43,303 nucleotides of DNA from Candidatus Magasanikiibacteriota bacterium (GTDB lineage: Bacteria; Patescibacteriota; Patescibacteriia; Magasanikbacterales; UBA10146): assembly GCA_016212585.1 (NCBI GenBank), contig JACRFU010000062.1, positions 1 to 43,303 on the forward strand. The letters are read 5' to 3'. Under the pieces are notes generated by a model. It saw nothing but the letters and a program-made list of their open reading frames with translations, did not search any database and was not told the DNA's origin. Below, one piece after another: positions 1 through 40,947 of the stretch. Numbering within the stretch: position 1 is the stretch's first letter; each line of letters begins with the position of its first letter. A program made the position numbers and the translations under genes.

Positions 1-62
1 AACACAAGCAAATCAACGCAATAATGGATTATGGAGCGCGGTTTCATAAGATTATGTCCATA
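1..62 (+). repeat. Family C palindromic element, partial copy (one arm, cut by window edge)
   Basis: nt 22-62 align at roughly 80 percent with 28949-28988, the right arm of the 28807-28988 palindrome. Shared pieces include the identical 12-mer TAATGGATTATG and the terminal ATGTCCATA. Confidence 0.6.
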
Positions 63-63
63 G

Positions 64-138
64 ACCTCAAAATTTATTCAACAATTCTGTCTCGAACTAT
101 GCGTATTTCGTTACAAAAGCGCATTCGGCGACAGACCC
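64..138 (-). repeat. Family A MITE, half copy (copy 1), abutting the family C arm
   Basis: ACCTCAAAATTTATTCAACAATTCTGTCTCGAA...AAAAGCGCATTCGGCGACAGACCC matches the reverse complement of the left half of full copies such as 8413-8573. The other half is missing. Confidence 0.8.
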
Positions 139-188
139 ATAATAGAAAATACGTACTAAAATGTCAAAAAGTTTCATTTGGGCATGAG

Positions 189-2460: not shown

Positions 2461-2622
2461 GGGTCTGTCGCCGAATATGCTTTTGTAATGAAATGTACAG
2501 ATTTCGAGACAAAATTGTTGAATAAATTTTGAGGTTTAATTGCAAATTAAGCTGAAAAATTTTGAAACGATTTTGGCCGAAATATGTGCATTGCAGTAAA
2601 AATGGCATTCGTCGACAGACCC
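2461..2622 (+). mobile_element. Family A MITE, full copy 2 (162 bp)
   Basis: GGGTCTGTCGCCGAATATGC...GCATTCGTCGACAGACCC. The whole element is an imperfect palindrome. It ends 1 nt from the stop of the 2624-3241 gene. Confidence 0.9.
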
Positions 2623-2623
2623 A

Positions 2624-3241
2624 CTAAATGACTCGCGCAATAACACGCGTAGGTGCGCTGTCTGTTTCAAATTTGGCAGGCAAGGCATATACTTCAAATG
2701 CTTCAACACCCAAAAGCGCGTTTAAATGCGTGAGATTTTCAATGAGTAAAATTTCTTTTTCTAAAAATAATTTATGAATCGGAAATGGCGAATCATCGGG
2801 ACCGGGAGTGTCTAATCCGACCATTTTTACACCGTGGTCAATGAACGAAAGCGCGCACCCGCGTGTCATACGAGGAAAATCAGTGTAATACTCCGGCGCG
2901 CCAAACTTTTCCGACCAGCCGGTCAAGCACAACACAATACTCCCTTGCGAAATTTTTACCACACTCGCCACGGTTTCATCAATCACCGCTTTGCCGCGCG
3001 CGTCAATCAAAATATCTTGTCCTATCAACCTCTCAATCGGTATTTCAGAAAGTTTTCGTCCTCCTTTTACCATATGCATCGGTCCGTCTATATGCGTGCC
3101 TACATGCATGCCAGTTCGCACTTCATGATCCGCAAACTTGTCTTTTTCAATATTCGCAATCTGTTGTAATTGCGGTACAGCATCCCCCGGATAAACAGGC
3201 ATACGCGTGGTAAAGGTATGCGTGAGATCAATATAATGCAT
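2624..3241 (-). CDS. Cyclase-family protein (kynurenine formamidase-like, PF04199-type)
   Basis: 205 aa. N-terminus is MHYIDLTHTFTTRMPVYPGD, with HVGTHIDGPMHM and GLDTPGPD motifs typical of the putative cyclase / arylformamidase fold. Confidence 0.7.
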   Translation of the reverse strand: MHYIDLTHTFTTRMPVYPGDAVPQLQQIANIEKDKFADHEVRTGMHVGTHIDGPMHMVKGGRKLSEIPIERLIGQDILIDARGKAVIDETVASVVKISQGSIVLCLTGWSEKFGAPEYYTDFPRMTRGCALSFIDHGVKMVGLDTPGPDDSPFPIHKLFLEKEILLIENLTHLNALLGVEAFEVYALPAKFETDSAPTRVIARVI

Positions 3242-3435
3242 AACATTTTACTTCTTGTAATTATACTTTACTAAATATATTCTGTAAATGATGGCGCAAT
3301 CAAAAAACACGCCGTGACCAAAGCATGTTTTTTGATTATCTTTTATTTTTTATTCCCCAGATATTCTTTCGGCCAGTTGCCGATCAGCATCTGTAACTGG
3401 AGTAAATTTGTAGATAAACCTCGCTGACATACTAT

Positions 3436-3595
3436 GGGACTGTCGCCGAATGCGCTTTTGTAGCAAAATTTCTGAATTTTGAGATAGAATTGTTGAATAA
3501 ATTTTGAGGTTTAACAGCAGTTAAGCCGAAAAATTTTGAAACGATTTTGACCGAAATTTGCCAATGAAGGAGAAATGCTATTGGGGGACAAGTCT
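3436..3595 (+). mobile_element. Family A MITE, copy 3 (subfamily A2, right terminus degenerate)
   Basis: GGGACTGTCGCCGAATGCGCTTTTGTAGC...TTGAGGTTTAACAGCAGTTAAGCCGAAAAATTTTGAAACG... The right end is decayed to GCTATTGGGGGACAAGTCT. It starts 1 nt after the secY stop codon. Confidence 0.8.
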
Positions 3596-3596
3596 A

Positions 3597-4871
3597 TTAA
3601 TATATCTCGTAATCGTGCATAGAAACACGAGCCTCTACCTGCTGGACAATTTCAATGACCACCGCCACCACAATTAAAAGCGAAGTTCCGCCGATTGCCA
3701 AAGAAGTACTGCCTGCAAATTGGCGCAAAGTCAACGGTAAAACCGCGATTGCGCCCAAAAACAACGAGCCTGCAAGTAAAATGCGATTCATAATATAGGT
3801 GAGATATTCCGCGGTCAGATGGCCCGGACGAATACCGGGAATAAACCCGCCTTGTTTTTGCAAATTTTCCGCGATTTTTTGAGGTTGAAACACAATAGCC
3901 GCGTAAAAATACGTAAACACCACCACCAGAAAAAAATATACCACGGCGTAAAAAATCTGATTGTTAAACAAACTGATCGTTGACGCGGCCGCGTTGCGCA
4001 ACCATGGCGCGCTCGCGTGCGCAAAAAATTGCGCGATCATGCTCGGAAACAAAATCAAAGAAATCGCGAAAATAATCGGAATTACGCCTGCCATATTAAC
4101 GCGCAATGGCAAGTGTGACTGCGTGCCGCCGTAGGATTTGCCGCCATGAATATGCCGCGCGTACGATACCGGTATATTGCGCTGTCCTTCAGTAATAAAT
4201 ACCACGCCGATAATGGTAAAGATTGCAACGCCCACAAACAAAATCATATTCAACAGCTGGCTTGAGTCATACGTCAAAAGTGTCTGTTGAAGCCTGCCCG
4301 GCAAACCGGAAATAATACCGGCAAAAATAATCAATGAAATGCCGTTGCCGATTTTACGCTCGGAGATAAGTTCTCCAATCCACATAAGAAACATACAACC
4401 CGCGGTAATGGTGATCATAGAGGTGACCAAGCGCATAACGCTTAAATCCGTAATAACACCGCGAGCGGAAGCGCGCAGAAGCATAATGGTGCCGTATCCC
4501 TGTAAAATTGCCAAAGGCACGGTTGCGTAACGAGTATATTGATTAATTTTTTGCTGGCCTTGTTCCCCTTCTTTGGAAAGCGCGTCAAGCGAAGGAATTA
4601 CCATACCCAACAACTGAAAAATAATTGATGCGGTAATGTATGGTCCCACGCCAAGCATAATAACAGAAAAATTTTGCAAAGTGCCTCCGGAAAACACATT
4701 GACCAAGCCCAAAATCTGATTGGATTGAAAAAAACGGCGCAATGCGATAACATCTACGCCAGGAATGGGAATATGCGCGAGTAATCGGAAAATCACGAGC
4801 ATCCCTATGACAAATAAAACATCGCGTCGCAAATCTTTGATTTTCCAAATGTGTCCTAACCGTTCAAACAT
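3597..4871 (-). CDS. secY: Preprotein translocase subunit SecY
   Basis: 424 aa multi-pass membrane protein at the end of the spc cluster, with typical SecY sequence (..FSGGTLQNFSVIMLGVGPYITASII..). Confidence 0.95.
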   Translation of the reverse strand: MFERLGHIWKIKDLRRDVLFVIGMLVIFRLLAHIPIPGVDVIALRRFFQSNQILGLVNVFSGGTLQNFSVIMLGVGPYITASIIFQLLGMVIPSLDALSKEGEQGQQKINQYTRYATVPLAILQGYGTIMLLRASARGVITDLSVMRLVTSMITITAGCMFLMWIGELISERKIGNGISLIIFAGIISGLPGRLQQTLLTYDSSQLLNMILFVGVAIFTIIGVVFITEGQRNIPVSYARHIHGGKSYGGTQSHLPLRVNMAGVIPIIFAISLILFPSMIAQFFAHASAPWLRNAAASTISLFNNQIFYAVVYFFLVVVFTYFYAAIVFQPQKIAENLQKQGGFIPGIRPGHLTAEYLTYIMNRILLAGSLFLGAIAVLPLTLRQFAGSTSLAIGGTSLLIVVAVVIEIVQQVEARVSMHDYEIY

Positions 4872-4879
4872 AATGAATT

Positions 4880-5323
4880 TTAAACAGTTTTGCCTCCTGC
4901 TTTCTTAATTTTATCAAGAGCGCCTTTGGATAGCAAGCACCCCTTGATTGCCAGCTTCTTGGTAAGTTCCCCCTTAGAGAGTATTTTTGCTCCAAAACGC
5001 GTGGTGGAAATCAATTTTTTAGCAAATAATGCCGAAGGAGTTACGGTCTCGCCCGCTGAAAATGCTTTTTCAAGCTGACTGCAATTGACCACCTCCTGTT
5101 TGGTAACAAAACTTTTGAAACCACCCAATTTAGGTAAACTCAAAAGCATGGGGCGCATACCCAAACGTTTCAAACGGCCGCGTCCGCTTCCGGTACGGGC
5201 TTTCTGGCCTTTTTGGCCGCGCGCGCTGTAGGTGCCGTGTCCGGATGCATTGCCGCGTCCTACATATTTTGCTTTGCGATGCGCGCTTGCTTTTGGTTTG
5301 AGCGTGTGTAATGAAAGTGTCAT
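4880..5323 (-). CDS. rplO: 50S ribosomal protein L15
   Basis: 147 aa with GRGNASGHGTYSARGQKGQKARTG. Position lies between rpsE and secY. Confidence 0.95.
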   Translation of the reverse strand: MTLSLHTLKPKASAHRKAKYVGRGNASGHGTYSARGQKGQKARTGSGRGRLKRLGMRPMLLSLPKLGGFKSFVTKQEVVNCSQLEKAFSAGETVTPSALFAKKLISTTRFGAKILSKGELTKKLAIKGCLLSKGALDKIKKAGGKTV

Positions 5324-5337
5324 ATCAATTGGTATAG

Positions 5338-5952
5338 TTAAATTGCTGAATCAGCCTTTTGTTCAATGTGTGAAGCCTCCGGTGCGGCTATTGCTGTTTT
5401 GATACGGCGCGCGCGCAACATTTCCAATGCTTTAAATGTCGCTTTCACATTATTGATTTTATTTTTGCTTCCCAACATTTTACTCACAATGTTCGGCACG
5501 CCCGCCATCTGAAGCACAATACGCGTGGCACCACCGGCAATAATACCAGAACCTTTTGGAGCCGGCTTCAAGAGCAAAACACCGGACGCAAACTTTGCGT
5601 CAACACGATGCGGAATTGTTTCATTGATAATCGGGACGGTTATCATGTGTTTTTTCGCCTGATTAACCGCTTTATTTACTGAAAATGTTACGTCGGCTCC
5701 TTTTCCTACGCCATACCCTACGCGGCCTTTTTTATCTCCAATCACCACACACGCGCGAAAACGCATACGTTTGCCGCCTTTGGTCACACGGGTCACGCGC
5801 GCCAAATCAATAATTTCTTGGGCAAACTCGCGCTCTTCCCGTTCTCGGCGATCTCCTCTGCCGCCACCTCTTCCACCACGCGCTCCGCCTTGTCCGCCTT
5901 GGCCTTTACGGCGATCATTGCCGCTAAATTGTTTTGATTGCTGTTGTTCCAT
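5338..5952 (-). CDS. rpsE: 30S ribosomal protein S5 with an RGG-rich N-terminal extension
   Basis: 204 aa. The core is VTRVTKGGKRMRFRACVVIGDKKGRVGYGVGKG. The N-terminal ~45 aa are Gly/Arg low complexity (GQGGQGGARGGRGGGRGDRRE). Confidence 0.95.
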   Translation of the reverse strand: MEQQQSKQFSGNDRRKGQGGQGGARGGRGGGRGDRREREEREFAQEIIDLARVTRVTKGGKRMRFRACVVIGDKKGRVGYGVGKGADVTFSVNKAVNQAKKHMITVPIINETIPHRVDAKFASGVLLLKPAPKGSGIIAGGATRIVLQMAGVPNIVSKMLGSKNKINNVKATFKALEMLRARRIKTAIAAPEASHIEQKADSAI

Positions 5953-5981
5953 AGTTAATTTTTTATGGTGTGTATGGTGTG

Positions 5982-6359
5982 TTAGAACTCTAATCCGCCT
6001 TTGCGAGCGCCTTCCGCAACCGCCTTAATGCGCCCGTGATATTTATAACCACTCCGGTCAAACACCGCCTTATAAATACCCGCGGTTTTTGCCGCACTCG
6101 CAAGCGCTAAACCGGTTGCGTACGCCACACGCGTTTTGCCTTTGTATTCTTCCGGCGCGTCTGCCTCCTTTACGGATTTGCTCATCACGCCCACAACGGT
6201 TGATTGCTTCACATCGTCAATCAATTGCGCATAAATATGTTTAAGGCTTCTAAAAACCGACAGACGCGGACGATTTGCGGTGCCGGTCACACGCGCCCGC
6301 ACGCGATTCTTTCGCATCACGCGCCCCGTTCGTTTTTTTGTGATATCTTTTTTAAGCAT
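5982..6359 (-). CDS. rplR: 50S ribosomal protein L18
   Basis: 125 aa with RPRLSVFRSLKHIYAQLIDD and a C-terminal YHGRIKAVAEGARKGGLEF. Confidence 0.95.
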   Translation of the reverse strand: MLKKDITKKRTGRVMRKNRVRARVTGTANRPRLSVFRSLKHIYAQLIDDVKQSTVVGVMSKSVKEADAPEEYKGKTRVAYATGLALASAAKTAGIYKAVFDRSGYKYHGRIKAVAEGARKGGLEF

Positions 6360-6376
6360 AAAAATATATACGTATT

Positions 6377-6925
6377 TTAAGCGGCTGCTTTGCCCGCGGC
6401 CTTGCCAGCCTTTCTATGAACTATTTCATCAACATATTTGATCCCCTTGCCTTTGTACGGTTCTGGCTTCTTCAAGGCGCGAATGAGTGCGGCAGTCTGA
6501 CCAACCGCGGCCTTATCAATGCCGCTCACTTTAATGATTTCTTTTTCAACCGCAATCGTAATACCTTCTGGAATGGAAAATACAATTGGATGGGAAAACC
6601 CAAGCGAGAGTTCCAAATTTTTTCCTTTGACCGCGGCCTTAAAACCCACACCGCTAACCTCAAGCGACTTCTCAAAACCGTTCACGACGCCGTCAATCAT
6701 GTTGCGTACCAAACTTCCATGCAGGCCCCACAACGCGCGGTCATCAACCAGATCCGGGTCTTGCACGGTAATATTTAAAACACCCGCGTCTTGCGTAATG
6801 GAAATATGGGGATGCGCGTGCAATGTAAGCATCCCTTTTGGTCCTTTTACCATCACCTCAGCATCTTTAATGGTGACGGTAACGCCTGGTGGAATTTGAA
6901 TTGGTTTTTTTCCTACGCGTGACAT
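6377..6925 (-). CDS. rplF: 50S ribosomal protein L6
   Basis: 182 aa starting MSRVGKKPIQIPPGVTV, with EPYKGKGIKY. Confidence 0.95.
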   Translation of the reverse strand: MSRVGKKPIQIPPGVTVTIKDAEVMVKGPKGMLTLHAHPHISITQDAGVLNITVQDPDLVDDRALWGLHGSLVRNMIDGVVNGFEKSLEVSGVGFKAAVKGKNLELSLGFSHPIVFSIPEGITIAVEKEIIKVSGIDKAAVGQTAALIRALKKPEPYKGKGIKYVDEIVHRKAGKAAGKAAA

Positions 6926-6934
6926 ATGTTTTGA

Positions 6935-7327
6935 TTAAAACAATTCACAAATAACTTCTCCGCCCAAGCCTTTGGTGCGCGCGTCTCGGCTGGTCATCAA
7001 CCCTTGCGGTGTTGAGATTATGGAAATGCCAAACCCATTATGAATAGGCCGCAATTGGTCATGTTTAATATACACGCGGCGCCCCGGTTTACTGATGCGG
7101 GTAATGGATTGCAATGACGGCTCTTTCCCCTCATGATAACGCAATGTTATTTTCAACATTGGGAACGGCTTCTCAACCAATTCAAAAGAACGCAGGTATC
7201 CGTGTGCGGCCAAAATTTTGGCAATTTCAACTTTTACCTTTGAGGCCGGAGCCGTTACGGTTTCATGGCGCACTTTGTAGGCGTTGCGCAAACGGGTTAA
7301 GAAATCACTGATTGGATCGGAATGCAT
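6935..7327 (-). CDS. rpsH: 30S ribosomal protein S8
   Basis: Start placed at MHSDPISDFLTRLRNA, the canonical S8 N-terminus, which is an internal ATG of ORF 6935-7360. C-terminus is GGEVICELF. Confidence 0.9.
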   Translation of the reverse strand: MHSDPISDFLTRLRNAYKVRHETVTAPASKVKVEIAKILAAHGYLRSFELVEKPFPMLKITLRYHEGKEPSLQSITRISKPGRRVYIKHDQLRPIHNGFGISIISTPQGLMTSRDARTKGLGGEVICELF

Positions 7328-7353
7328 AAAAAATAATTCTTGTGTATAAAAAA

Positions 7354-7539
7354 TTACCAACTGGATTTTGTAATGCCGGGCAACTCCCCCCTATTTGCCA
7401 ATTCTCTAAAGCATATACGACACAGTTTGAAACGGCGCATATACCCATGCTTTCTGCCGCAACGCCAACATCGGCGCACCAAGCGAGTAGAAAACTTCGG
7501 TTTCTTAATGGACTTCGCGATTTGTCCTGTGGTTGCCAT
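7354..7539 (-). CDS. rpsN: 30S ribosomal protein S14, zinc-ribbon type Z (61 aa)
   Basis: 61 aa with CxxC...CxxC ([26 protein letters not shown]). Confidence 0.95.
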
Positions 7540-7544
7540 ACAGA

Positions 7545-8090
7545 TTATTTAGTAATCTTTTGTAAAGGGAATCCTGCCAAACGAAACAGCATCTTTGCTT
7601 CTTCAGGCGTTTTTGCGTCCGTGGTCACAGCAACCTCAAGACCATGCAGACGGTCAACCTCGTCGGATCGCACTTCCGGAAACGCGACATGTTCTTTAAA
7701 ACCAATTGCCAAATTACCTCTCTGGTCAAAACTCTTTTCAGACAATCCGCGAAAATCTCTCACGCGCGGAAAGGTGATGTTGATTAATTTGTCAATAAAA
7801 TCATACATACGCGCGCCGCGGAGCGTAACTTTGGCGCCAATAATCTGACCCTCGCGCACTTTGAAGTTTGAAATAGATTTACGCGCTTTGGTAAAGACAG
7901 ACTTCTGACCCGTAATATGTTCAAGCGTGCTTCTTACCGCTTCTTGTATTTTTGCGTCTTTAAGCAATTTACCAAAACCAACATTCACCACCACTTTGGT
8001 AAAACGAGGCGCTCCGGCCACCGATTTATAGTGGAATGTATTCTGAAGCGCGGCGCGTATTTCACTGATGTATTTTTCTTTTAAACTCAT
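7545..8090 (-). CDS. rplE: 50S ribosomal protein L5
   Basis: 181 aa with typical L5 sequence and operon position. Confidence 0.95.
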
Positions 8091-8092
8091 AC

Positions 8093-8401
8093 TTATAGGT
8101 CATTATTACATTTCTTGCAAACGCGCGTCTTGCTCTTGCCTTCAACCCTAAAACCAACACGCACACCGCGCTCGCAATGCGAACACAAAAGCGCGACATT
8201 TGAGACCGCCATAGGCGCGGACAATTCCAAAATCTGACCTTTTTGCCCCTGAGTGCGGGTGCGCAAATGCTTTTTAATAATATTTACTCCTTCTACCGCC
8301 ACTTTGTTCTCATGCGGAAACACCTGAATAACCTTTCCTGTTTTTCCTTTGTCTTTTCCCGCTAGAACTTTTATGGTGTCGCCAATTTTAATCTTTTTCA
8401 T
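8093..8401 (-). CDS. rplX: 50S ribosomal protein L24 (C-terminal CxxC...CxxC)
   Basis: True start is MKKIKIGDTIKVLAGKDKGKTGKV. The upstream part of ORF 8093-8464 is read-through of the MITE. The C-terminus carries CSHCERG...VCKKC. Confidence 0.9.
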   Translation of the reverse strand: MKKIKIGDTIKVLAGKDKGKTGKVIQVFPHENKVAVEGVNIIKKHLRTRTQGQKGQILELSAPMAVSNVALLCSHCERGVRVGFRVEGKSKTRVCKKCNNDL

Positions 8402-8412
8402 ATTGAGGTTAT

Positions 8413-8573
8413 GGGTCTGTCGCCGCATGCGCTTTTGTAATGAAACGCGCAGATTTCGAGACAAAATTGTTGAATAAATTTTGAGGTTTAATAATTTTTA
8501 AGCTGAAAAATTTTGAAATAATTTTGTCCGAAAGATGCGCGTTGCAATCAAAATGGCATTCGGCGACAGACCC
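8413..8573 (+). mobile_element. Family A MITE, full copy 4 (161 bp) between rplN and rplX
   Basis: GGGTCTGTCGCCGCATGC...GCATTCGGCGACAGACCC. It begins 3 nt after the rplN stop and ends 11 nt before the rplX ATG. Confidence 0.9.
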
Positions 8574-8576
8574 ATA

Positions 8577-8948
8577 TTATACCACTTCAGGCGCTAATGA
8601 AATAATTTTGGCAAAGCCTTTGTCGCGCAATTCGCGCGCAATCGGACCAAATACACGGCTTGCTTTTGGTTCTTTTGATTCTTTATCAACAATCACCGCG
8701 GCGTTGTCGTCAAAACGCACCGTAATGCCGTTACTGCGATTAATAGCCGCGCGCGTACGCACAATCACCGCATGCGCCACATCGCCTTTTTTAACCATAC
8801 CATACGGCTGGGCTTCTTTCACCGCTACAGTAATAATATCCCCCACGCGGGCGTAGCGCTTTTTGTAACCGCCAAGTACGCGAATACACTGGAGCTTTTT
8901 TGCTCCGGTATTATCTGCTACGGCTAACATGGTGCGGTGTTGTATCAT
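8577..8948 (-). CDS. rplN: 50S ribosomal protein L14
   Basis: 123 aa starting [18 protein letters not shown]. Confidence 0.95.
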
Positions 8949-8960
8949 ATTCGTGTTTAG

Positions 8961-9083
8961 TAGGACTTACGCCTTTGGCCAATTTCTTCGTCAAAGCCTG
9001 CGCTTCTCGCTCGTCGTAGATATACTACGGCTTGCTCCGATGCTCGGCTTTTCCTTGAACTTGTCTCAAAGGCGTAAGTCCTA
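8961..9083 (+). mobile_element. Family B MITE, copy 1 (123 bp) between rpsQ and rplN
   Basis: Perfect 17-bp TIR TAGGACTTACGCCTTTG / CAAAGGCGTAAGTCCTA, flanked by a direct 5-bp repeat TTTAG (8956-8960 and 9084-9088). Confidence 0.9.
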
Positions 9084-9084
9084 T

Positions 9085-9336
9085 TTAGGCTTTTTTAGCA
9101 ATACGCCAGCGCTTATCTTTGGATAACGGACGGCATTCAATAAAAGAAACCTTGTCGCCGGGCGCGTAGACGCCGCTGGTATAATGCACCTTAAATTTTG
9201 CGTGCACGATATAAAACTTTAAATACTTTGGGTGTTTTTTTACCTGTTCAACTTTTACCACAAGCGTTTTAGGCATCTTGGCGGAAGTAACAATGCCGGT
9301 AAAAACTTTATGTTGTACATTTTTTTTCTCTTGCAT
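9085..9336 (-). CDS. rpsQ: 30S ribosomal protein S17
   Basis: 83 aa with GIVTSAKMPKTLVVKVE, KHPKYLK and PLSKDKRW. Confidence 0.95.
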   Translation of the reverse strand: MQEKKNVQHKVFTGIVTSAKMPKTLVVKVEQVKKHPKYLKFYIVHAKFKVHYTSGVYAPGDKVSFIECRPLSKDKRWRIAKKA

Positions 9337-9337
9337 A

Positions 9338-9544
9338 TTATTTAATAACTATGTGCTTCAACAAAGTTAAGAGATGCGCGATGCGTTTGTGTGCGGCTTT
9401 CACCAAATGCACCTGCTTGACTTCTTGCGTGTGCACTTTAAACCGTAACGCGCGCAATGCCTCGCGCTCAGTGGCGAGCATACTCACGAGCTCATCCGAG
9501 TTTTTTGCACGCAATTCCTGTAATTGTATTTTTATTTTACTCAT
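9338..9544 (-). CDS. rpmC: 50S ribosomal protein L29
   Basis: 68 aa with LRAKNSDELVSML..EREALRALRFK. Position lies between rplP and rpsQ. Confidence 0.9.
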   Translation of the reverse strand: MSKIKIQLQELRAKNSDELVSMLATEREALRALRFKVHTQEVKQVHLVKAAHKRIAHLLTLLKHIVIK

Positions 9545-9959
9545 ATAAATCTTTGCTTACAAACGCGACTCTGGTAGGTAATTTATAACCAGCGAGTTTT
9601 ACTGCCTGCACCGCTATTTCTTTTGATATGCCTTCTACTTCAAAAATAATGGTGCCGGGTTTTACAATTGCCACATAGTGGTCAACCGCGCCTTTTCCTC
9701 CACCCATTGAGTTCTCGTTGCCATGCGCCGTGATGGGTTTATCCGGAAAAATACGGATCCAAAACTTGCCGCCTTTTTTTAAAAACTTGGTAATGGTACG
9801 GCGCGCGGCTTCTATCTGACGCGCGGTAATCCATGAATAATCAAGCGCTTTGAGCCCATATGTTCCAAACGCCAATTCAACTTTTGTAGTGGCAACCCCC
9901 GCGTTGCGGCGGCGGCCTTTATGCCACTTGCGATGTTTTACTTTCTTGGGAATCAACAT
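9537..9959 (-). CDS. rplP: 50S ribosomal protein L16
   Basis: True start is MLIPKKVKHRKWHKGRRRN. The upstream part of ORF 9537-10004 reads into family B copy 2. Confidence 0.93.
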   Translation of the reverse strand: MLIPKKVKHRKWHKGRRRNAGVATTKVELAFGTYGLKALDYSWITARQIEAARRTITKFLKKGGKFWIRIFPDKPITAHGNENSMGGGKGAVDHYVAIVKPGTIIFEVEGISKEIAVQAVKLAGYKLPTRVAFVSKDLYE

Positions 9960-9970
9960 ATTATGTGGTA

Positions 9971-10093
9971 TATGACCTACGCATTTGTCCAATTTCTTCG
10001 TCAAAGCCTGCGCTTCTCACTCGTCGTAGGTATACTACGGCTTGCTCCGATGCTCGGCTTTTCCTTGAACTTGTCTCAAATGCGTAGGTCATG
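9971..10093 (+). mobile_element. Family B MITE, copy 2 (123 bp) between rpsC and rplP
   Basis: TIR TATGACCTACGCATTTG / CAAATGCGTAGGTCATG. The interior is nearly identical to copy 1. Flanks are TGGTA / TGATA (4 of 5 match). The rpsC stop codon TGA (10089-10091) lies inside the element terminus. Confidence 0.88.
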
Positions 10094-10742
10094 TGATAAT
10101 CTCTTTTGACGCAAAAATATCTCCGCGATACACCCATACCTTAATGCCAATAATACCGTAAATAGTATGCGCGGTAGTGGAATTAAAATCAATATCAGAG
10201 CGAAGATTCTGCAAAGGAATTTTTCCTTCGGTAATAAACTCGCGGCGCGCGATTTCCGCGCCGTTCAAACGACCTGAAACCGCAATTTTTACTCCCAAAG
10301 CGCCTGCTTTGCGCACGCGCTCCACAGACTGCTTAAGTACGCGGCGGAACGGCACGCGTTTTTCAAGCTCAGTCACGACACCCTGTCCAATGATAGCGGC
10401 GGAAAGCGCCGGATGCGCTACTTCAAGAATATTCACTTTGACATTGGTCTTAACATCAAAAAATTTCTTTTGCAACTTTTTACGCAATTCTTCCGCTCCG
10501 GCGCCTCCGCGGCCAATAATCATGCCGGGTTTTGCCGCGGAAAGACTAATAGTAATATCGTGTGGGGTGCGTTCTATGCCAATCGCATCCACACCAGCGT
10601 CTTTGAACTCTTTCATCAAATGCGCGCGAATCGCCAAATCTTCGCGCAAAAATTTAGCATACCCTTTACGCGCGAACCATTTAGAATCCCATGTATAAAT
10701 ACTGCCGATGCGAAAAATTTTTGGATGTACTTTGTGACTCAT
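10089..10742 (-). CDS. rpsC: 30S ribosomal protein S3
   Basis: 217 aa starting MSHKVHPKIFRIG, with GIERTPHDITISLSAAKPGMIIGRGG (KH domain). Confidence 0.95.
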   Translation of the reverse strand: MSHKVHPKIFRIGSIYTWDSKWFARKGYAKFLREDLAIRAHLMKEFKDAGVDAIGIERTPHDITISLSAAKPGMIIGRGGAGAEELRKKLQKKFFDVKTNVKVNILEVAHPALSAAIIGQGVVTELEKRVPFRRVLKQSVERVRKAGALGVKIAVSGRLNGAEIARREFITEGKIPLQNLRSDIDFNSTTAHTIYGIIGIKVWVYRGDIFASKEIIT

Positions 10743-10750
10743 ACAATTAG

Positions 10751-11152
10751 TTATGATGTATATGTTGCGATTGCCGGCGCATCTTCTGTTTTTTCTTTCA
10801 CTTCTTTTTTGGCCGCGCGCATGATCTCCGTGAGCGTCAACTTAACAGAACAAGTCCGTTTGCGAATCTCATACGCTCGTCCAAACGCGCGCGGTTGGAA
10901 ACGTTTCAAAGTAGGACCTTGTTCCGCGACAATTGACTTAATTTTTAAATTGCCTGCTGATATATGAAAATTATGTTCCGCGTTTGCCACCGCCGATTTC
11001 ACCAATTTTGCAAGCGGTGTTTTATTTTTTTGCCCAGCAAACTGCAAAATCACGAGCGCGTCTTCAACACGCTTCCCGCGGATCTGGTCAATCAAGGGTT
11101 TCATTTTGCGCGTGCTTGTGCGAATTGTTTTGAGCTCTGCGAATACATCCAT
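10751..11152 (-). CDS. rplV: 50S ribosomal protein L22
   Basis: 133 aa in the conserved position, containing SAVANAEHN and AFGRAYEIRKRTCSV. Confidence 0.93.
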   Translation of the reverse strand: MDVFAELKTIRTSTRKMKPLIDQIRGKRVEDALVILQFAGQKNKTPLAKLVKSAVANAEHNFHISAGNLKIKSIVAEQGPTLKRFQPRAFGRAYEIRKRTCSVKLTLTEIMRAAKKEVKEKTEDAPAIATYTS

Positions 11153-11156
11153 AATA

Positions 11157-11489
11157 TTATTTCTTTGTGGGCGCTGGCGTGGCCGAAGCTTTTTTAGCCG
11201 CCTCTGACTGCGCCGTCTCTAAATCTTTTTGCATTTTGCCTCCGTGGCGAACAAACTTGCGCGTCGGAGAAAACTCTCCCAAACGGTGCCCCACCATATT
11301 TTCTACAATCATAACAGGAAGATGCTGTTTGCCGTTATGCACCGCAATCACAAACCCCACCATCTCGGGGGTTACCACACTGGCGCGCGCCCATGTTTTG
11401 ATAGGGGTTTTATCGCCTTGTTTCAGGCGCTTAACCTTTTTCATTAATTTTTCATCTATGTACGGACCTTTTTTTAAACTGCGTGACAT
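11157..11489 (-). CDS. rpsS: 30S ribosomal protein S19
   Basis: Starts [19 protein letters not shown], with [10 protein letters not shown] and [12 protein letters not shown]. Confidence 0.95.
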
Positions 11490-11495
11490 ACAAAA

Positions 11496-12323
11496 TTATT
11501 TACGATGTTGGATTATTAAAAAGTTGCTCCATTTCTTGCGTTTGCGCGTCTTAACCCCCAGCGCAGGCTTACCTTGCGGAGTTTCCGGACGACGCATACC
11601 GATTGGGTTGTGTCCCTCGCCGCCACCGTGCGGATGATCAACAGGATTCATGGCTTTTCCGCGCACTGACGGTCTCCAGCCCATATGGCGTCTGCGTCCC
11701 GCTTTGCCAAGACGGATCAAATTGCGGTCGGGATTGCTCAAAACGCCAATCGTCGCGGCGCATTCTTGGCTCACTTTTCGTAATTCGCCAGAAGGGAGTT
11801 TAAGTGTGGCATACCCCATTTCAACCGCCATCAACTGTGAACTAGTGCCAGCGCCGCGCACAATTTTACCGCCTTGTCCCGCCAATAATTCTATATTATG
11901 AACCATCTGGCCGACCGGAACAAATTTGAGCGGCATACGAGCGCCTGTTTTTACTTCAATGCGATTTTTTGAACTCAACACGGAGTCTCCTGCCGTAATG
12001 CCCTGCGGAGCCAATATATATGACTTCACTTTATCAGCATATTCAATCAATGCGATACGAGCACCTCTGTTGGGATCATATTCAATGGCGTTCACTGTTG
12101 CGGGTATATCATACCGCTGTTGTTTAAAATCCACCAATCTATAAAATGTGCGCGTGCCTCCTCCTCTGTGGCGCACAGTAATGCGGCCGTTGGAACGGCC
12201 GGTGCGCTTCTTGTGCACCATCATAAGCTTTTTCTCCGGTTTGTGTTTGGTGATATCGTCGAACGCATCCACCATAGTGGCGCGGCGTCCGGGAGTTGTT
12301 GGTTTGTATGTCTTAAATGCCAT
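11496..12323 (-). CDS. rplB: 50S ribosomal protein L2
   Basis: True start is MAFKTYKPTTPGRR. The upstream part of ORF 11496-12410 is MITE read-through. Contains RGKAMNPVDHPHGGGEG. Confidence 0.95.
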   Translation of the reverse strand: MAFKTYKPTTPGRRATMVDAFDDITKHKPEKKLMMVHKKRTGRSNGRITVRHRGGGTRTFYRLVDFKQQRYDIPATVNAIEYDPNRGARIALIEYADKVKSYILAPQGITAGDSVLSSKNRIEVKTGARMPLKFVPVGQMVHNIELLAGQGGKIVRGAGTSSQLMAVEMGYATLKLPSGELRKVSQECAATIGVLSNPDRNLIRLGKAGRRRHMGWRPSVRGKAMNPVDHPHGGGEGHNPIGMRRPETPQGKPALGVKTRKRKKWSNFLIIQHRK

Positions 12324-12325
12324 AG

Positions 12326-12487
12326 GGGTCTGTCGCCGAATGCGCTTTTGAAACGAAATGCGCAGATTTCGAGACAAAATTATTGAATAAATTTTGAGGT
12401 TTAATTGCAAATTAAGCTGAAAAATTTTGAAACAATTATGGCCGAACTATGCATATTGCAGTCAAAATGGCATTCGGCGACAGACCC
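12326..12487 (+). mobile_element. Family A MITE, full copy 5 (162 bp) between rplW and rplB
   Basis: GGGTCTGTCGCCGAATGC...GCATTCGGCGACAGACCC. Flanking 5-mers are CATAG (12321-12325, which contains the rplB start codon) and CATAT (12488-12492). Confidence 0.9.
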
Positions 12488-12494
12488 CATATGA

Positions 12495-12956
12495 TTATAC
12501 CGAACTCAAAAGAGTAATATGGTCTCCTTTGCCGACGGTAACCATTGCCTTCTTCCACGCTTTGCGCGTGCCGCTTCTGCGCCCAAACTGTTTTACTTTC
12601 CCGCGCATGCTCACGATGCGCACTTTGATAACCTTTACTTTAAAAACTGATTCAACCGCTTTTTTCACTTCTACTTTATTAGTGTTTTTTGCGACTTCAA
12701 ATACATATTGATTTTGTGTTTGGTGCAAGGTGTTCTTCTCCGTGAGAAGAGGACGCAATAATACGCGATGCGCGCCGCCAGTGGCGCGTGGTTTTTCTTC
12801 AATAGACGGTGTGGAAACAACCACTTCTGTTTCCTTGTTGGATTTTAATGATACAGTTTTTTCTGCAACAGCAACAATCACAGGTGTTTTTTTTTGTTGC
12901 GTTACTTGTTTTTTCTGCTCTTCTTTTTTATTTTTGTACCAATTAAAAATACTCAT
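12495..12956 (-). CDS. rplW: 50S ribosomal protein L23 with a ~55-aa N-terminal extension
   Basis: The C-terminal ~95 aa (LLRPLLTEKNT...FEVAKNTNKVEVKKAVE...KKAMVTV) are canonical L23. The N-terminal part is Lys/Glu/Thr-rich. Confidence 0.9.
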   Translation of the reverse strand: MSIFNWYKNKKEEQKKQVTQQKKTPVIVAVAEKTVSLKSNKETEVVVSTPSIEEKPRATGGAHRVLLRPLLTEKNTLHQTQNQYVFEVAKNTNKVEVKKAVESVFKVKVIKVRIVSMRGKVKQFGRRSGTRKAWKKAMVTVGKGDHITLLSSV

Positions 12957-16274: not shown

Positions 16275-16350
16275 AGATTTATGATATATTAAATATTAAA
16301 AAATTTTACTAATTTAAGCGATTTTTTATACCTAAAAAGGTACGAGCATT

Positions 16351-16379
16351 ACTATACCACAACAAAAAAAATAATGCAA
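16351..16379 (-). promoter_or_regulatory. Candidate sigma70-type promoter for tuf
   Basis: On the minus strand: TTGCAT, 17 nt, TATAGT preceded by TGG (extended -10-like). It lies about 75 nt upstream of the tuf ATG. Confidence 0.45.
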
Positions 16380-16402
16380 GAGCGGATGCTGTGGACAGCT
16401 CT

Positions 16403-16753
16403 TTAGCTCTCAACCGGCTCCAAATAATAGTGGTCTTCAACCTGCTTTTCTTCTAAAACTTGTGGTTTTTCAGCAAATTCTTCCCACCAATCCGGCGCGG
16501 CGGTTTCCGTCAATTCTTGAACAAGCACTCCGCCAAGCGGCAACGCGCTTTGGGCTACTTCTTCCTTTATAGGAGTAACAAAAGATGTTTTTTCCTGCAT
16601 TTTTTCTGTTAATCCCTGTTTACCAAACACTAGATGCTCATAATCTTTAATGGACATGACCACATAATTATTCTCTGTGGAGCGATCAATCACCACCAAG
16701 CGGTCGCCTGTTTTTTTGATGAGTTCTAAAATTTGGTCAAACGATTCGGTCAT
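16403..16753 (-). CDS. Phd/YefM-like antitoxin-fold protein with an acidic tail (no adjacent cognate toxin)
   Basis: The N-terminal DRLVVIDRSTENNYVVMSIKDYEHLV resembles the Phd/YefM beta-strand core. The C-terminal half is Glu/Pro-rich. Confidence 0.4.
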   Translation of the reverse strand: MTESFDQILELIKKTGDRLVVIDRSTENNYVVMSIKDYEHLVFGKQGLTEKMQEKTSFVTPIKEEVAQSALPLGGVLVQELTETAAPDWWEEFAEKPQVLEEKQVEDHYYLEPVES

Positions 16754-16787
16754 AGTGTATCAATTGTATAAAAAATATCTTCCCTTG

Positions 16788-17189
16788 TCAACCCGCGCTC
16801 ATATGATCCAACACCATCTGCATTAAGACGTAATACTTCTCTATACTCTCTAAAAGCTGTCTTGCGAATGCTTCATCATAGGTGTGTGTTGTTGTATTAT
16901 GATCATCCACCATTTGCAAAAGCGTTTCTGTTTCAACATCTGACACCAGTTCATGAACACGCAACGCTCTAAAACATTCTTTGGGGGAAGGCGCATTCGT
17001 CCCAAAACGTTCAAATAAAAATACTTTACATGCTTTCCAGCACAACTCAAACGAATATTCAAACCGCTGTATGGCGGCATCGCGCACAAATGTCTCCACA
17101 TTCTCCGGATTATATGCATCTAACGCTTCTTTGGGCGTCATAAGCGCTTTTTTGAATGCGCCCAATTTATAGATTAACGTTTGATCCAT
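16788..17189 (-). CDS. HEPN-domain protein, HI0074-family nucleotidyltransferase substrate-binding subunit (HepT-like toxin)
   Basis: 133 aa with DAAIQRFEYSFELCWKACKVFL, typical of NTase_sub_bind/HEPN. Overlaps the upstream MNT gene by 16 nt. Confidence 0.75.
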   Translation of the reverse strand: MDQTLIYKLGAFKKALMTPKEALDAYNPENVETFVRDAAIQRFEYSFELCWKACKVFLFERFGTNAPSPKECFRALRVHELVSDVETETLLQMVDDHNTTTHTYDEAFARQLLESIEKYYVLMQMVLDHMSAG

Positions 17190-17470: not shown

Positions 17471-17483
17471 ATGCACATATAAT

Positions 17484-17537
17484 GGGTTTGTCGCCGAATG
17501 CCATTTTGACTGCAAAAGCGCATTCAGCGACAGACCC
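17484..17537 (-). mobile_element. Family A mini-derivative (54 bp, both termini, interior deleted), copy 6
   Basis: GGGTTTGTCGCCGAATGCCATTTTGACTGCAAAAGCGCATTCAGCGACAGACCC, flanked by a perfect direct repeat ATAAT (17479-17483 and 17538-17542). Confidence 0.85.
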
Positions 17538-20076: not shown

Positions 20077-20087
20077 ACCCTTTTATC

Positions 20088-32124: not shown

Positions 32125-32204
32125 GAGTCTGCCGCCGAATGCTATGCCCGTAACAAAATGTACGTATGCGCATTGCAGTCAAAATTGCATTCGGTGGCAG
32201 ATCC
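32125..32204 (+). mobile_element. Family A internally deleted derivative (80 bp), copy 7
   Basis: GAGTCTGCCGCCGAATGCTATGCCCGTAACAAAATG joined to TACGTATGCGCATTGCAGTCAAAATTGCATTCGGTGGCAGATCC. Flanked by a perfect direct repeat ATTAT (32120-32124 and 32205-32209). Confidence 0.8.
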
Positions 32205-32964: not shown

Positions 32965-33053
32965 ACAAAATGTGGTTGAATGATACACTGAGACGAAAAA
33001 TTTTGAAACAACTATGGCCGAACTATGTCAAAATGGCATTCGACGACAGACAC
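32965..33053 (+). repeat. Family A partial copy 8 (right half, left terminus missing)
   Basis: ..GAAAAATTTTGAAACAACTATGGCCGAACTATG-TCAAAATGGCATTCGACGACAGACAC matches the right half of copy 5. Confidence 0.75.
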
Positions 33054-35287: not shown

Positions 35288-36749
35288 CTATTTCAACTTT
35301 TTTACCCATCCATGGTTTGCGTTCACCTCAACTATATCGCCATCACGCAACACTTCCGTCGCAATCTTGGTACCGATAATGCTTGGAATGCCAAGCTCAC
35401 GGGAAACAATCGCCGCGTGAGAAGTAATGCCTCCTTCACTAGTTACTATTGCCGCGGCTTTTTTCATTGCAGGGGACTGTCGCCGAATGCGCTTTTGTAA
35501 CGAAATTTCCAGATTTCTGGACACAATTGTTGAATACATTTTGAGGTTTAACAGGAGTTAAGCCGAAAAATGTTGAAACAATTTTGGATGAAATAGGGGA
35601 ATTGCAGTCAAAATGGCATTCGGCGACAGTCCCTGCAGTGATATAATCCGGCCGCGTCATGACCGCTACCAAAATATCACCCTGTTTAACTTTGTCGGCT
35701 TCCGTGGCCGAATTAAGTATGCGCACAGGGCCAATTGCTCTGCCGGTTGAAGCGGATAACCCCCTAAAATCATCAACTTGGTCATGTGGTTTTTGCCCCA
35801 AAACCATTTTTTTCAATTCTTCCAAGCACGCGCTTGGTACCACCTCAAACGCTTCTCCGACCACAATAAATCCGGATTTTTTTCTACCTTGCAATTCTTT
35901 TCGCGACGGTTCTCTTTTTGACATAATATCTTTAATTTCTACCGGATAGGCAAATTTCAACTCATCCAATGTATAATCCGTGCGCCGGACAACTTCTTTC
36001 AAAATAGTACAACCCATATCAATGTTAAAATAGGTTGCTTTTTTACACTTATCTTGCCACCATGTAAAATCTTCCGAGATCTGTATGAGCGCGCGCAGAA
36101 GCGCGGACAATTTTACTTTTTTAAACAGCGCTTGTTTTTTTATTCTATTCAAGCGCGGCGTTTCATACAAATGTTTCAATTCCTTCTTTAAATCTTTGCC
36201 GCTTTTTTTCCACGCTCTGATTTCTTCTTGAAAATGCTTCACACTCAACACCTGCGCTGTGATATAATTATTCTTGCTCCAATACGAGCGCTTTTGATAG
36301 GCGACTAAATTATCCTTGGAAACGCCCACTATAATTTTAAGCAGTTCTATTTCCGCCTGATTGCTAAATGATTGATGCACGGGCGCAGTGGCAATGCTAA
36401 AAATTTCAGTAAATTGTGATTCTTTAAATCTCGCGGAATTTTTTGAGCCATATAATTCCTTGCGCAGTAGCGCGCTGATAATCTCGTCCGTGCCCAAAGC
36501 AAAATGATCAATCAAAATTGTTGAAGTGGCGCAATTGATGAATAACGTATAGGTGGTATTCCACACTTCAAGAAGTTGCGCATCGGAACATTTTTTTAAA
36601 TCAATCGCAGGGAATGTTTTCCAAAAATATCGTTCATATATCTGTTCATCTTTTTTCCATTTCTTGAGCAATTTTGTTGAAAGCCGAGGGTCTTTTTTGG
36701 CAAGCTCAACAAACCGTTTTGCCGCACACCGTATATCACCCATTTCCAA
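35288..36749 (-). pseudogene. PEP-utilising-enzyme-like gene (paralog of 38734-40167) split by family A copy 9
   Basis: The upstream part ends ..ILVAVMTRPDYITA and the downstream part starts [28 protein letters not shown]. The intact paralog has ..[42 protein letters not shown], so the 166-nt insertion (161-bp element plus 5-bp duplication) sits exactly between A and M. Confidence 0.85.
35473..35633 (+). mobile_element. Family A MITE, full copy 9 (161 bp, subfamily A2) inside a coding sequence
   Basis: GGGACTGTCGCCGAATGC...GCATTCGGCGACAGTCCC, flanked by a perfect 5-bp direct repeat TGCAG (35468-35472 and 35634-35638). Confidence 0.92.
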
Positions 36750-40824: not shown

Positions 40825-40947
40825 TCGGACCTACGCATTTGAGACAAGTTCGAGGAAAAGCCGAGCATCGGAGCAAGCCGTAATATACCTACGACGAGCG
40901 AGAAGCGCAGGCTTTGACGAAGAAATTGGCCAAATACGTAGGTCCTA
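40825..40947 (-). mobile_element. Family B MITE, copy 3 (123 bp, inverted relative to copies 1-2) between gpmI and the PAP2 gene
   Basis: GGACCTACGCATTTG...CAAATACGTAGGTCC. The interior is the reverse complement of copies 1 and 2. TTTA lies on both flanks (40821-40824 and 40948-40951); the right one overlaps the gpmI stop codon. Confidence 0.88.

Follow-up and report, generated by a model that had tools for sequence, protein, structure and literature searches.

Bacterial MITEs (PMC10969869; PMC2229807) are small, non-coding elements with terminal inverted repeats and target duplications, dispersed in many, mostly intergenic copies, with predicted long stem-loop transcripts and truncated derivatives. 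These traits are shared by two repeat families, A and B, found in a 43-kb stretch of DNA (the window, meaning the whole stretch that was analysed), one contig in the MAG of an uncultured groundwater bacterium assigned to Candidatus Magasanikbacteria (CPR). Many classic bacterial MITEs have TA termini, whereas the families described here are flanked by A/T-rich duplications of 5 bp; the hosts of family A span several CPR lineages with 33-58% GC, and its parent insertion sequence was not found in the loci examined. The Tn3-derived MITE known as TIME (PMC4133298) also has 5-bp direct repeats, and it shares with family A its GGG(G) ends, arms related over ~38 nt, and stable predicted RNA stem-loops. 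TIMEs are 262 bp long with repeats that match known Tn3-family transposons (PMC4133298), whereas family A is 162 bp long. The arms of family A begin with GGG(G)TCTG and agree with each other at 26 of 38 positions by our own count. No Tn3-family transposase (DDE_Tnp_Tn3) was present in the loci examined, which come from fragmentary MAGs, and no plasmid record matched the family A repeat. The ends of family A may resemble the Tn3 repeat.

Correia elements (CREE/NEMIS) of Neisseria duplicate a TA target. They are palindromic MITEs of ~100-160 bp, co-transcribed with their neighbours, and similar in size and palindromic form to the present elements, but their TA termini, their own repeats, and their IHF sites and outward promoters were not seen in the window elements. 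The double-stranded RNA stem formed by their terminal repeats is a substrate of RNase III (PMC10969869, PMC2649163). The ERIC (IRU) sequences of enterobacteria are imperfect palindromes in transcribed intergenic regions, often right after stop codons, and in Yersinia the terminating ribosome has been proposed to change the ERIC hairpin, affecting mRNA decay (PMC2229807). ERIC, with 127 bp and TA termini (PMC2229807), has no sequence relationship to families A and B; its effects depend on orientation, whereas family A follows no orientation rule across genomes. The structural prerequisite of Correia- and ERIC-type effects, a basal stem of 16-23 bp beside a stop codon, is predicted here as well. 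Membership in either group is ruled out by the variable 5-bp duplication and the different ends (PMC2229807, Table 1), and membership among REP/REPIN sequences by the clear 5-bp duplications; no RAYT (Y1 transposase) gene was seen. Ribosome termination structures, which are short, native, and read as insulators that inhibit reinitiation (PMC7518266), are defined by a stable structure right behind a stop codon, which is also predicted here, but formed by a transposed hairpin of 120-160 nt inside an essential operon. According to the title under which it is cited, an insertion of the Chunjie MITE into an operon of Geobacter uraniireducens left the operon structure undisturbed (PMC10969869). Chunjie belongs to another family and host and, as far as that title goes, made a single operon insertion, whereas several insertions are present here in ribosomal protein operon junctions of 1-15 nt.

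Copies of families A and B in the window

Twelve copies of family A and family B (the latter 123 bp long; neither has coding capacity) are present in the window, where gene identities were checked by Pfam and gene starts by tblastn against the called genes of the closest relative (L001; SecY 86% identical). The stop-adjacent repeats described in the earlier note are real: copies begin 0-7 nt after the stop codons of secY, rplN, rplW, rpsQ, gpmI and a cyclase-family gene, and another copy (B2) provides the stop codon of rpsC. At the rplW-rplB junction, A5 (12326..12487, minus strand; 162 bp, GGG...CCC) lies 7 nt after the rplW stop (TAA, 12495-12497) and 2 nt before the rplB ATG (12321-12323), between the pentamers ATATG (12488-12492) and CTATG (12321-12325), of which the latter supplies the rplB ATG. 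At the rplN-rplX junction, A4 (8413..8573, minus strand) leaves 3 nt between the rplN stop (8577-8579) and its GGG, and 11 nt between its other end and the rplX ATG (8399-8401). A3 (3436..3596, minus strand) begins immediately behind the secY stop (3597-3599) and is chimeric, its left end belonging to subfamily A' (TAGACTTGTCCCCCAATA) and its right end to type A. It is located at a synteny break, secY being followed by adk and map in eight relative loci (seven distinct organisms). A2 (2461..2622, minus strand) follows the cyclase-family gene (2624-3241) at a distance of 1 nt from its TAG, and the left pentamer of A2, TTAGT, includes that stop.

The family B copies are similarly placed. B1 (8961..9083, minus strand; TAGGAC...GTCCTA) occupies the rpsQ-rplN junction, 1 nt after the rpsQ stop, with the duplication CTAAA at 9084-9088 and 8956-8960, the first copy of which includes the rpsQ stop. 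B2 (9971..10093, minus strand) contains the rpsC TGA (10089-10091): it entered 4 nt upstream of the original stop, with the duplication TATCA/TACCA, and its termini are altered to CATGAC...GTCATA, giving ACA TGA and leaving the C-terminus of S3 unchanged. B3 (40825..40947, plus strand) separates gpmI (stop 40949-40951) from a PAP2 gene (ATG 40813-40815) and lies 1 nt after the gpmI stop.

Five of the twelve copies (A1, A6, A7, A8 and A9) are not stop-adjacent. A9 (35473..35633, minus strand), with a perfect duplication CTGCA, is inserted within a paralogue resembling PEP synthase, which it splits by shifting the reading frame. A1 (54..139, plus strand) is a half copy of family A in opposite orientation, about 47-50 nt after the stop of a YgjP-like gene, and A8 (32971..33053, minus strand) is a half copy located where tgt and an ORF at 32288-32950 diverge. 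There are two mini copies with perfect duplications ATAAT: A6 (17484..17537, plus strand), consisting of the two terminal repeats only, in the spacer between P-type ATPase and nucleotidyltransferase genes, 54-56 nt after a stop; and A7 (32125..32204, minus strand), 83 nt after a stop and adjoining the next start.

Target duplications, empty sites and conserved structure

The terminal repeat GGGTCTGTCGCCGAATGC is found at both ends of family A, with 15 matches (at most 3 mismatches) where 0.04 were expected; family B has the terminal inverted repeat TAGGACYTACGCMTTTG, the end of which gives 6 matches where 1.2 were expected. Of 26 family A copies, 10 are flanked by perfect 5-bp duplications (0.58 on average in shuffled sets, 5 at most), and 16 by duplications identical at four or more of the five positions (2.8 in shuffles). 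The duplicated family A pentamers are 91% A/T and variable (CTGCA, CTCTT, ATAAT and others), and the family B duplications are CTAAA, TGTGA and TA(T/C)CA. The corresponding sites of the closest relative are empty, with spacers of 4 nt between the genes for L23 and L2 (TAA GCAT ATG, the A5 site), 1 nt for S3 and L16, 27 nt for S17 and L14, and 4 nt for L14 and L24 (TAA CAAT ATG, the A4 site). The duplications and the empty sites thus bear out the earlier suggestion of MITE-like insertion into formerly tight junctions. Across genomes, copies occur in both orientations, in unrelated contexts, in 5' regions and, in one case, within a gene, and family A has truncated and mini derivatives. Judged by these features of sequence (short, non-coding elements with terminal inverted repeats, target duplication, and dispersed copies with presence/absence polymorphism), families A and B are non-autonomous DNA transposons (MITEs), new families of a known kind. 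Their mobilisation is deduced from the duplications only, because the window, JACRAK010000032.1, MITE-rich contigs and loci flanking single-end matches, which together cover a small part of the host genomes, yielded no transposase or autonomous partner.

The hairpins, called perfect in the earlier note, are predicted to be long but imperfect (-51 to -72 kcal/mol, z -7.7 to -10; for example -66.3 kcal/mol, z -7.9, for A5; -72.4 kcal/mol, z -10, for A4; and -56.8 kcal/mol, z -8, for B1), with only the basal 16-23 bp being near-perfect. In the stem of family A, 30 of 58 pairs show compensatory changes across genomes and 95% of cells are paired, covariation that shows selection on structure. This selection could act at the RNA level; G-U pairs are rare at the covarying positions, which a constraint at the level of DNA or of both strands would explain no less well than one acting on RNA. 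There is no match to Rfam 15 at the gathering threshold anywhere in the window. The elements lack a strong sense promoter, and no terminator tail or U-tract follows the stems of the window copies.

Stop codons, spacers and translation starts

Of the 10 intergenic window copies, 5 have a target pentamer that overlaps a stop codon, compared with 5-12% of non-disruptive pentamers (P 0.0001-0.004), and a similar bias is found in other genomes (P ~0.01). The stop-proximal preference that the earlier note had raised therefore exceeds the expectation from short spacers, and it persists after allowing for A/T-rich non-disruptive targets; the residual bias may reflect selection that keeps the leader of the downstream gene intact. 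Copies per junction are equal within and outside the operon (19/55 junctions, P 0.47), whereas relative to spacer length copies are enriched in the operon (P 0.0017, or 0.02-0.04 with the count restricted to A/T-rich non-disruptive pentamers). The duplicated pentamer preserves the start codon of rplB at A5 and the stop codons at A2, B1 and B3 (TTAAA in the last case), as it likewise preserves codons in other genomes after relB (L043) and smpB (L045).

Two premises of the earlier note fail. Uninterrupted junctions, given there as 2-15 nt, extend from an overlap of 8 nt up to a spacing of 29 nt; and the lack of Shine-Dalgarno (SD) sequences, from which termination-reinitiation coupling had been deduced, extends to almost all genes of the window and of the closest relative, including the operon-first genes tuf, rpsJ and fusA, so that SD-independent initiation is the general mode of this genome.

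Behind the stops of rplW, rplN, rpsQ and rpsC, the predicted helices begin at a distance of 0-7 nt. Three of the four downstream ribosomal protein starts (rplP, rplN and rplX) retain 11-14 nt of native A-rich leader that is predicted to be single-stranded, and their start regions have predicted accessibilities of 0.38, 0.79 and 0.57, respectively, compared with 0.30-0.69 for other genes. At rplB, the 23-bp basal stem of A5 is predicted to begin directly after the rplW stop, with UCAUA pairing to the UAUGG that holds the rplB AUG, and the accessibility of the start region is predicted as 0.19 (0.05 for the AUG), but as 0.43 once a ribosome is placed on the rplW stop. Thus, occlusion by the element is predicted for rplB only, the other three starts being within the normal range of the operon. 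Decoy AUG codons are found 1 nt (A4) and 4 nt (A5) after the stop, opening ORFs of 26 and 29 codons that run into the hairpin.

Proposed origin and consequences of stop adjacency

Insertion of MITEs, target duplication and selection together probably explain the stop adjacency and its consequences for translation. This compact genome would offer few A/T-rich pentamers open to insertion without loss of a gene, and such sites would be gene boundaries. With the pentamer duplicated, a stop codon within it would be kept for the upstream gene, and a start codon for the downstream gene; junctions of 1-4 nt tolerate elements with both genes intact because the five-base duplication rebuilds the stop or start codon, which would be the main reason that the elements fit operon gaps. 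Purifying selection would clear insertions from essential coding sequence and probably also those that break the native 10-15-nt leader of the next gene, so that the survivors would lie at the stop-proximal edge. Stop adjacency as an outcome of target choice, duplication and selection is not evidence for a built-in function. The elements would be transcribed within the operon mRNA and fold as hairpins, being read through because there is no U-tract behind the stem. For rplP, rplN and rplX, translation would begin de novo on the remaining 11-14-nt leader, in the SD-independent way usual for this genome, while the ribosome finishing rplW probably melts the A5 stem and frees the paired rplB AUG, which would be coupling by unmasking rather than reinitiation across a folded hairpin.

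It is unlikely that the folded hairpin instead joins stop and start in space, so that ribosomes reinitiate as across the original 1-10-nt junction. The geometry invites this reading, since stops lie at the predicted helix base and starts within the helix (rplB, where the CAU just after the rplW stop pairs with the AUG) or 11-14 nt beyond it, and the downstream genes are essential and intact, so that their expression must survive. However, a ribosome at the stop would cover ~12 nt downstream and melt the stem base, leaving no folded geometry at termination; stable structure just after a stop insulates against reinitiation in E. coli (PMC7518266); and reinitiation coupling is nearly lost at ~20 nt (PMC10666635). 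A reinitiating ribosome would moreover begin at the decoy AUG codons of A4 and A5 first, and the near-absence of SD sequences throughout is no evidence that these junctions were coupled. The idea of a conserved regulatory RNA or DNA motif native to the junctions, such as an attenuator or protein-binding site, is very improbable and largely refuted: strong conservation of structure with covariation would suit it, and absence from Rfam would suit an RNA not yet described, but the 5-bp duplications, the empty orthologous sites, the unrelated contexts in both orientations, the insertion that breaks a gene, and the truncated and mini derivatives all stand against it.

Compared with the insertion, duplication and selection favoured here, a role as processing or stabiliser sites, in which stems cut by RNase III or blocking exonucleases would favour retention in the ribosomal operon, appears doubtful. 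The basal stems of 16-23 bp and the much longer total stems would suit it, covariation keeps the hairpin across distant hosts, and there are precedents in the cleavage of Correia transcripts by RNase III at the terminal repeats and in the ribosome-dependent modulation of mRNA decay by ERIC elements at the 3' ends of genes (PMC10969869, PMC2229807). Yet the closest relative and three other relatives have no insert at these junctions, so that any such function is dispensable; the operon is not enriched per junction; the rarity of G-U pairs suits the DNA or two-strand constraint equally or better; and the occurrence of the same families in antisense orientation, in 5' regions and within coding sequence argues against a dedicated function in the operon. 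Unrelated hairpin repeats are present in junctions of the same operon in two other lineages (L002-L005 and L066), which counts in favour of such a role and could hint at a benefit beyond tolerance.

Insertion into the ribosomal-protein operon

Pfam and tblastn searches identify on the - strand an rpsL-rpsG-fusA block, followed by toxin-antitoxin genes and an ATPase, and then a second block, tuf-rpsJ-rplC-rplD-rplW-rplB-rpsS-rplV-rpsC-rplP-rpmC-rpsQ-rplN-rplX-rplE-rpsN-rpsH-rplF-rplR-rpsE-rplO-secY, with the SecY gene at 3597-4871. This SecY is 100% identical to a protein of a Candidatus Magasanikbacteria MAG, which places the window within the Candidate Phyla Radiation (CPR). The same searches found no L30 in this operon, an absence that is usual in the CPR. 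The window contains 12 copies of two MITE families: family A (162 bp at full length; A1 to A9), of which the ends GGGTCTGTCGCCGAATGC have 15 matches at up to three mismatches in the window versus 0.04 expected, and family B (123 bp; B1 to B3), of which the ends have six matches versus 1.2 expected. The positions at stop codons claimed in the earlier note were borne out by direct reading of the - strand: A3 directly abuts the secY stop; A2 lies 1 nt past the stop of a cyclase-family gene; A4 lies 3 nt past the rplN stop and 11 nt ahead of the rplX ATG; A5 lies 7 nt past the rplW stop and 2 nt ahead of the rplB ATG; B1 and B3 begin 1 nt past the rpsQ and gpmI stops, respectively; and the B2 stem begins with the rpsC TGA. 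The other five copies (A1, A6, A7, A8 and A9) have no adjoining stop codon.

The closest relative, GW2011_GWA2_45_39 (L001; SecY 86% identical), shares this operon, and its sites are empty: TAA GCAT ATG at rplW-rplB, TAA T ATG at rpsC-rplP, 27 nt at rpsQ-rplN, and TAA CAAT ATG at rplN-rplX. When the element and one flanking pentamer are removed from the window, these junctions measure 4, 1, 15 and 10 nt, respectively. Among 26 family A copies (from the window and from scans of genome contigs and metagenome contigs), 10 have identical flanking pentamers (CTGCA, CTCTT, ATAAT twice, ATTAT twice, TTATA, ATAAA, ATTTA and TTTTA) versus 0.58 in shuffled pairings, and 16 have pentamers that match at four or more of the five positions, versus 2.8; 91% of the duplicated bases are A or T. 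Family B (TAGGAC...GTCCTA) likewise has 5-bp duplications (CTAAA at B1, TATCA/TACCA at B2, and TGTGA at L037, a locus from outside the window). Judged by these sequence comparisons, the elements are insertions, and the empty sites and 5-bp duplications back the previous suggestion that MITEs entered formerly tight junctions. The uninterrupted junctions, previously given as 2-15 nt, in fact extend from an overlap of 8 nt up to 29 nt. A fixed TA duplication of the IS630/mariner type, which was the initial reading of A4, A5 and B1, was rejected because the duplications at copies in other genomes are of 5 bp (CTGCA and CTCTT, for example).

Element A3 (in the 3242-3606 region) is chimeric, with a left end of a second family A subfamily (A', as in locus L042 at 4733-4882) and a right end of the A type. 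It is located exactly at a synteny break, the window having secY-A3-cyclase-A2-AbiE versus secY-adk-map in all eight relative loci, which represent seven distinct organisms. Together, the chimera and the break suggest rearrangement via recombination between two elements.

Target sequence and proximity to stop codons

The duplicated pentamer often holds a stop or start codon, so that both flanking genes are left intact. Stop codons are contained in the pentamers of A2 (TTAGT), B1 (CTAAA) and B3 (TTAAA), as well as in other genomes after relB (L043) and after smpB (L045), and the rplB ATG lies inside the A5 pentamer (ATATG/CTATG). Thus, a 5-bp duplication can admit a transposon to junctions of 1-4 nt with damage to neither gene, here in the most conserved operon of bacteria. 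Of the window's A/T-rich pentamers, only 13-16% could receive an insertion that leaves every gene unsplit. The block from L3 to secY has four of the ten intergenic copies versus 5.7% of intergenic bases (P 0.0017 by spacer length), or versus an expected share of 11-14% when only non-disruptive A/T-rich pentamers are considered (P 0.02-0.04); by copies per junction, the operon is not enriched (19 of 55 junctions, P 0.47). Five of the ten intergenic window copies have a target overlapping a stop codon, versus 5-12% of admissible pentamers (P 0.0001-0.004), and in other genomes, for which gene calls are rough, four of 22 copies are within 3 nt of a stop versus a background of 4.2% (P ~0.01). The stop-proximal bias is real. 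A specific preference for TAA was rejected: TAA or TTA is present in 10 of the 16 good duplications, which is the 62% expected of any all-A/T pentamer.

We infer that the remaining stop bias is due to selection, as a stop-proximal insertion would spare the native leader of the next gene; the original upstream sequence, 11-14 nt, is kept ahead of rplP, rplN, rplX and the PAP2 gene. The role of selection is shown by the two insertions outside junctions, A9 and B2. Element A9, with a perfect CTGCA duplication, lies inside a PEP-synthase-like paralogue with the frame shifted: the junction reads ...DYITA, element, MKKAAAIVT..., compared with EYIFAMKKACAVIT in the intact paralogue (38734-40167). Element B2 (9971-10093) entered rpsC 4 nt ahead of the stop, where standard family B ends would add ~20 residues to S3. 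The B2 ends are CATGAC...GTCATA, not TAGGAC...GTCCTA, and this alteration restores ACA TGA and leaves the C-terminus of S3 (KEIIT, then stop) unchanged. The G-to-T change of the left end is matched by a complementary C-to-A change of the right end, so that the stem stays paired; this complementary pair and one T-to-C change set B2 apart from the four remaining family B copies.

Partial or mini family A copies in two other MAGs end 1 nt before a uvrB-like ATG (L010:6116-6162) and ~38 nt before rpoB (L022:4557-4629), and thus the boundaries of other essential genes are used as well. For annotation, the elements account for seemingly long spacers and for the split PEP-synthase-like gene, and they explain false N-terminal extensions, as the rplB and rplX ORFs run into elements.

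Hairpins and translation of downstream genes

The hairpins are not perfect, as had been stated, but are long and imperfect with near-perfect basal stems of 16-23 bp, and have minimum free energies of -51 to -72 kcal/mol and z-scores of -7.7 to -10. Family A extends to MAGs that bear the labels Azambacteria, Kerfeldbacteria and others and to several groundwater metagenomes, with 75-96% identity and 33-58% GC. Double changes occur at 30 of 58 pairs of its hairpin versus 12.8 in shuffles and 7-17 with slid partners, and 95.3% of cells are paired versus 85.8% and 33-52%, respectively; from this covariation, the family A hairpin is maintained through compensatory change. With few G-U intermediates, the constraint is not necessarily one on the RNA. 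Family A has a direction (nhmmer scores ~170 bits for one strand versus 65 for the opposite strand); an orientation bias, apparent from the five of five full window copies co-oriented with transcription, was dropped because antisense copies are common in other genomes.

When the elements were scanned for promoters and terminators, the stems proved to lack a trailing U-tract, and no strong promoter was present in sense orientation; the matches were limited to weak ones facing outward on the antisense strand. Thus, read-through by transcription is the simplest expectation. The Shine-Dalgarno (SD) motif is almost absent from gene starts of both the window and L001, including the operon-first genes tuf, rpsJ and fusA; the ORF at 32288-32950 stands out as a clear exception, with GGGAGG 6 nt ahead of its ATG (in 32951-32975). 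Since this absence is a genome-wide property, it is no evidence that the occupied junctions were coupled, and the earlier inference of termination-reinitiation coupling from the lack of SD sequences is unsupported. The predicted unpaired probability across positions -12 to +6 of the start is 0.79 for rplN, 0.57 for rplX, 0.38 for rplP and 0.30-0.69 for the remaining operon genes. The operon's lowest value is that of rplB (0.19, and 0.05 for the AUG alone), of which the AUG is locked in a predicted 23-bp stem that starts right after the rplW stop; the value rises to 0.43 once a terminating ribosome is simulated by keeping the 28 nt that surround the rplW stop unpaired. Because of these predicted values, three of the four genes (rplP, rplN and rplX) would be translated by ordinary de novo initiation, and rplB by coupling through unmasking. 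The rplW-A5-rplB junction, compared with the relative's empty junction, offers a natural test case for translation in a nearly SD-less organism.

That the folded hairpin might let coupling survive across the element, by spatial reinitiation, is geometrically possible, but the terminating ribosome would have to melt the base of the stem, a stable structure right after a stop acted as an insulator of reinitiation in E. coli (PMC7518266), and reinitiation coupling is nearly lost at ~20 nt (PMC10666635). Moreover, the left boundaries of A4 and A5 (..AT/GGG, from 8574-8576 and 12488-12490 onwards) create decoy AUGs 1 nt past the rplN stop and 4 nt past the rplW stop, respectively, opening ORFs of 26 and 29 codons that extend through the 5' arm as far as a UAA close to the hairpin apex. 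The other role proposed in the earlier note, as putative sites of RNase III processing or stabilisation, has precedents in Correia and ERIC sequences (PMC10969869, PMC2229807), and the stems are of sufficient length, although four relatives (L001, L065, L067 and L068) have no such inserts in the operon.

Unrelated hairpin repeats are present in the operons of two other lineages. In L002-L005 (SecY 70% identical), a ~75-nt double-hairpin repeat fills rpsQ-rplN, L18-S5 and S5-L15 from stop to ATG (L005:6083-6165, 8912-8994 and 9469-9551); the three copies show covarying changes in the second stem (GTC/GAC, ATC/GAT, GCC/GGC), and no copies were seen outside the operon in the locus sequence examined. 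In L066 (SecY 67% identical), a 79-nt repeat peculiar to this relative lies at rpsQ-rplN (5880-5958) and L15-secY (9899-9977), and several palindromic repeats occupy junctions downstream of secY. Thus, three of seven sampled Magasanikbacteria-like lineages have unrelated hairpin repeats in the operon, with rpsQ-rplN occupied in each. Such repeats in SD-less operons could reflect either tolerance of inserts or some benefit. That they are favoured in CPR junctions of SD-less hosts, as putative processing or insulation modules that set cistron stoichiometry, seems quite improbable, although it would fit the three of seven lineages, the compensatory change in family A across 33-58% GC, and the paired end mutations of B2.

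Origin of the families and other features of the window

CPR (Patescibacteria) genomes are small, and most descriptions portray them as poor in mobile DNA. A full-text literature search for MITEs in the CPR yielded no paper on the subject, its single match being unrelated. The elements are new MITE families of a known kind, unusual in host and location, and document active-looking MITE families in this group. The 5-bp A/T-rich duplication and the GGG(G)TCTG ends are reminiscent of Tn3-derived TIMEs (PMC4133298), but the elements were not assigned to TIMEs because neither a Tn3-family transposase nor a matching repeat was detected in ORFs near copies or in plasmid records. No parent transposase was identified by Pfam or NCBIfam among all window ORFs and the ORFs flanking copies or single-end matches; the large ORF beside the partial copy of L022 is rpoB, and that beside the L010 copy resembles uvrB. 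A phage or plasmid vector is unsupported, as the viral contigs searched contained no copy and plasmid records showed no similarity to the elements. Rfam and tRNA scans of the window were negative, and an exact-match search with the L14 protein likewise gave no result.

The genes tuf and fusA, usually neighbours, are 4.6 kb apart in the window (16275-20887), separated by a MNT/HepT-like pair, a P-type ATPase, an AbiEi/AbiEii pair and the mini element A6; a degraded second AbiE locus is at 1169-2198. Beside A9, at 34368-35467, lies a cluster of gene fragments: queA in truncated form (189 aa), part of a PEP-utiliser mobile domain, and the C-terminal remainder of the split PEP-synthase-like paralogue. 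Paralogous coding sequence alone accounts for the direct repeat 35358-35471/38804-38917. A third hairpin repeat family, with 46-nt arms that are 87% complementary, is present between two ORFs of unknown function (28805-28988), and has copies in the 'Azambacteria' contig JACRAK010000032.1 (L043:1535-1716, 89% identity; L042:1-136), which has all three repeat families, and no other sequence, in common with the window. Immediately at the end of A1 (139-167) is a near-consensus promoter-like site (TTGACA, 17 nt, TATTAT), and the -10 hexamer of this site shares bases with the pentamer beside A1, indicating that -10 boxes also suit the A/T-rich target.
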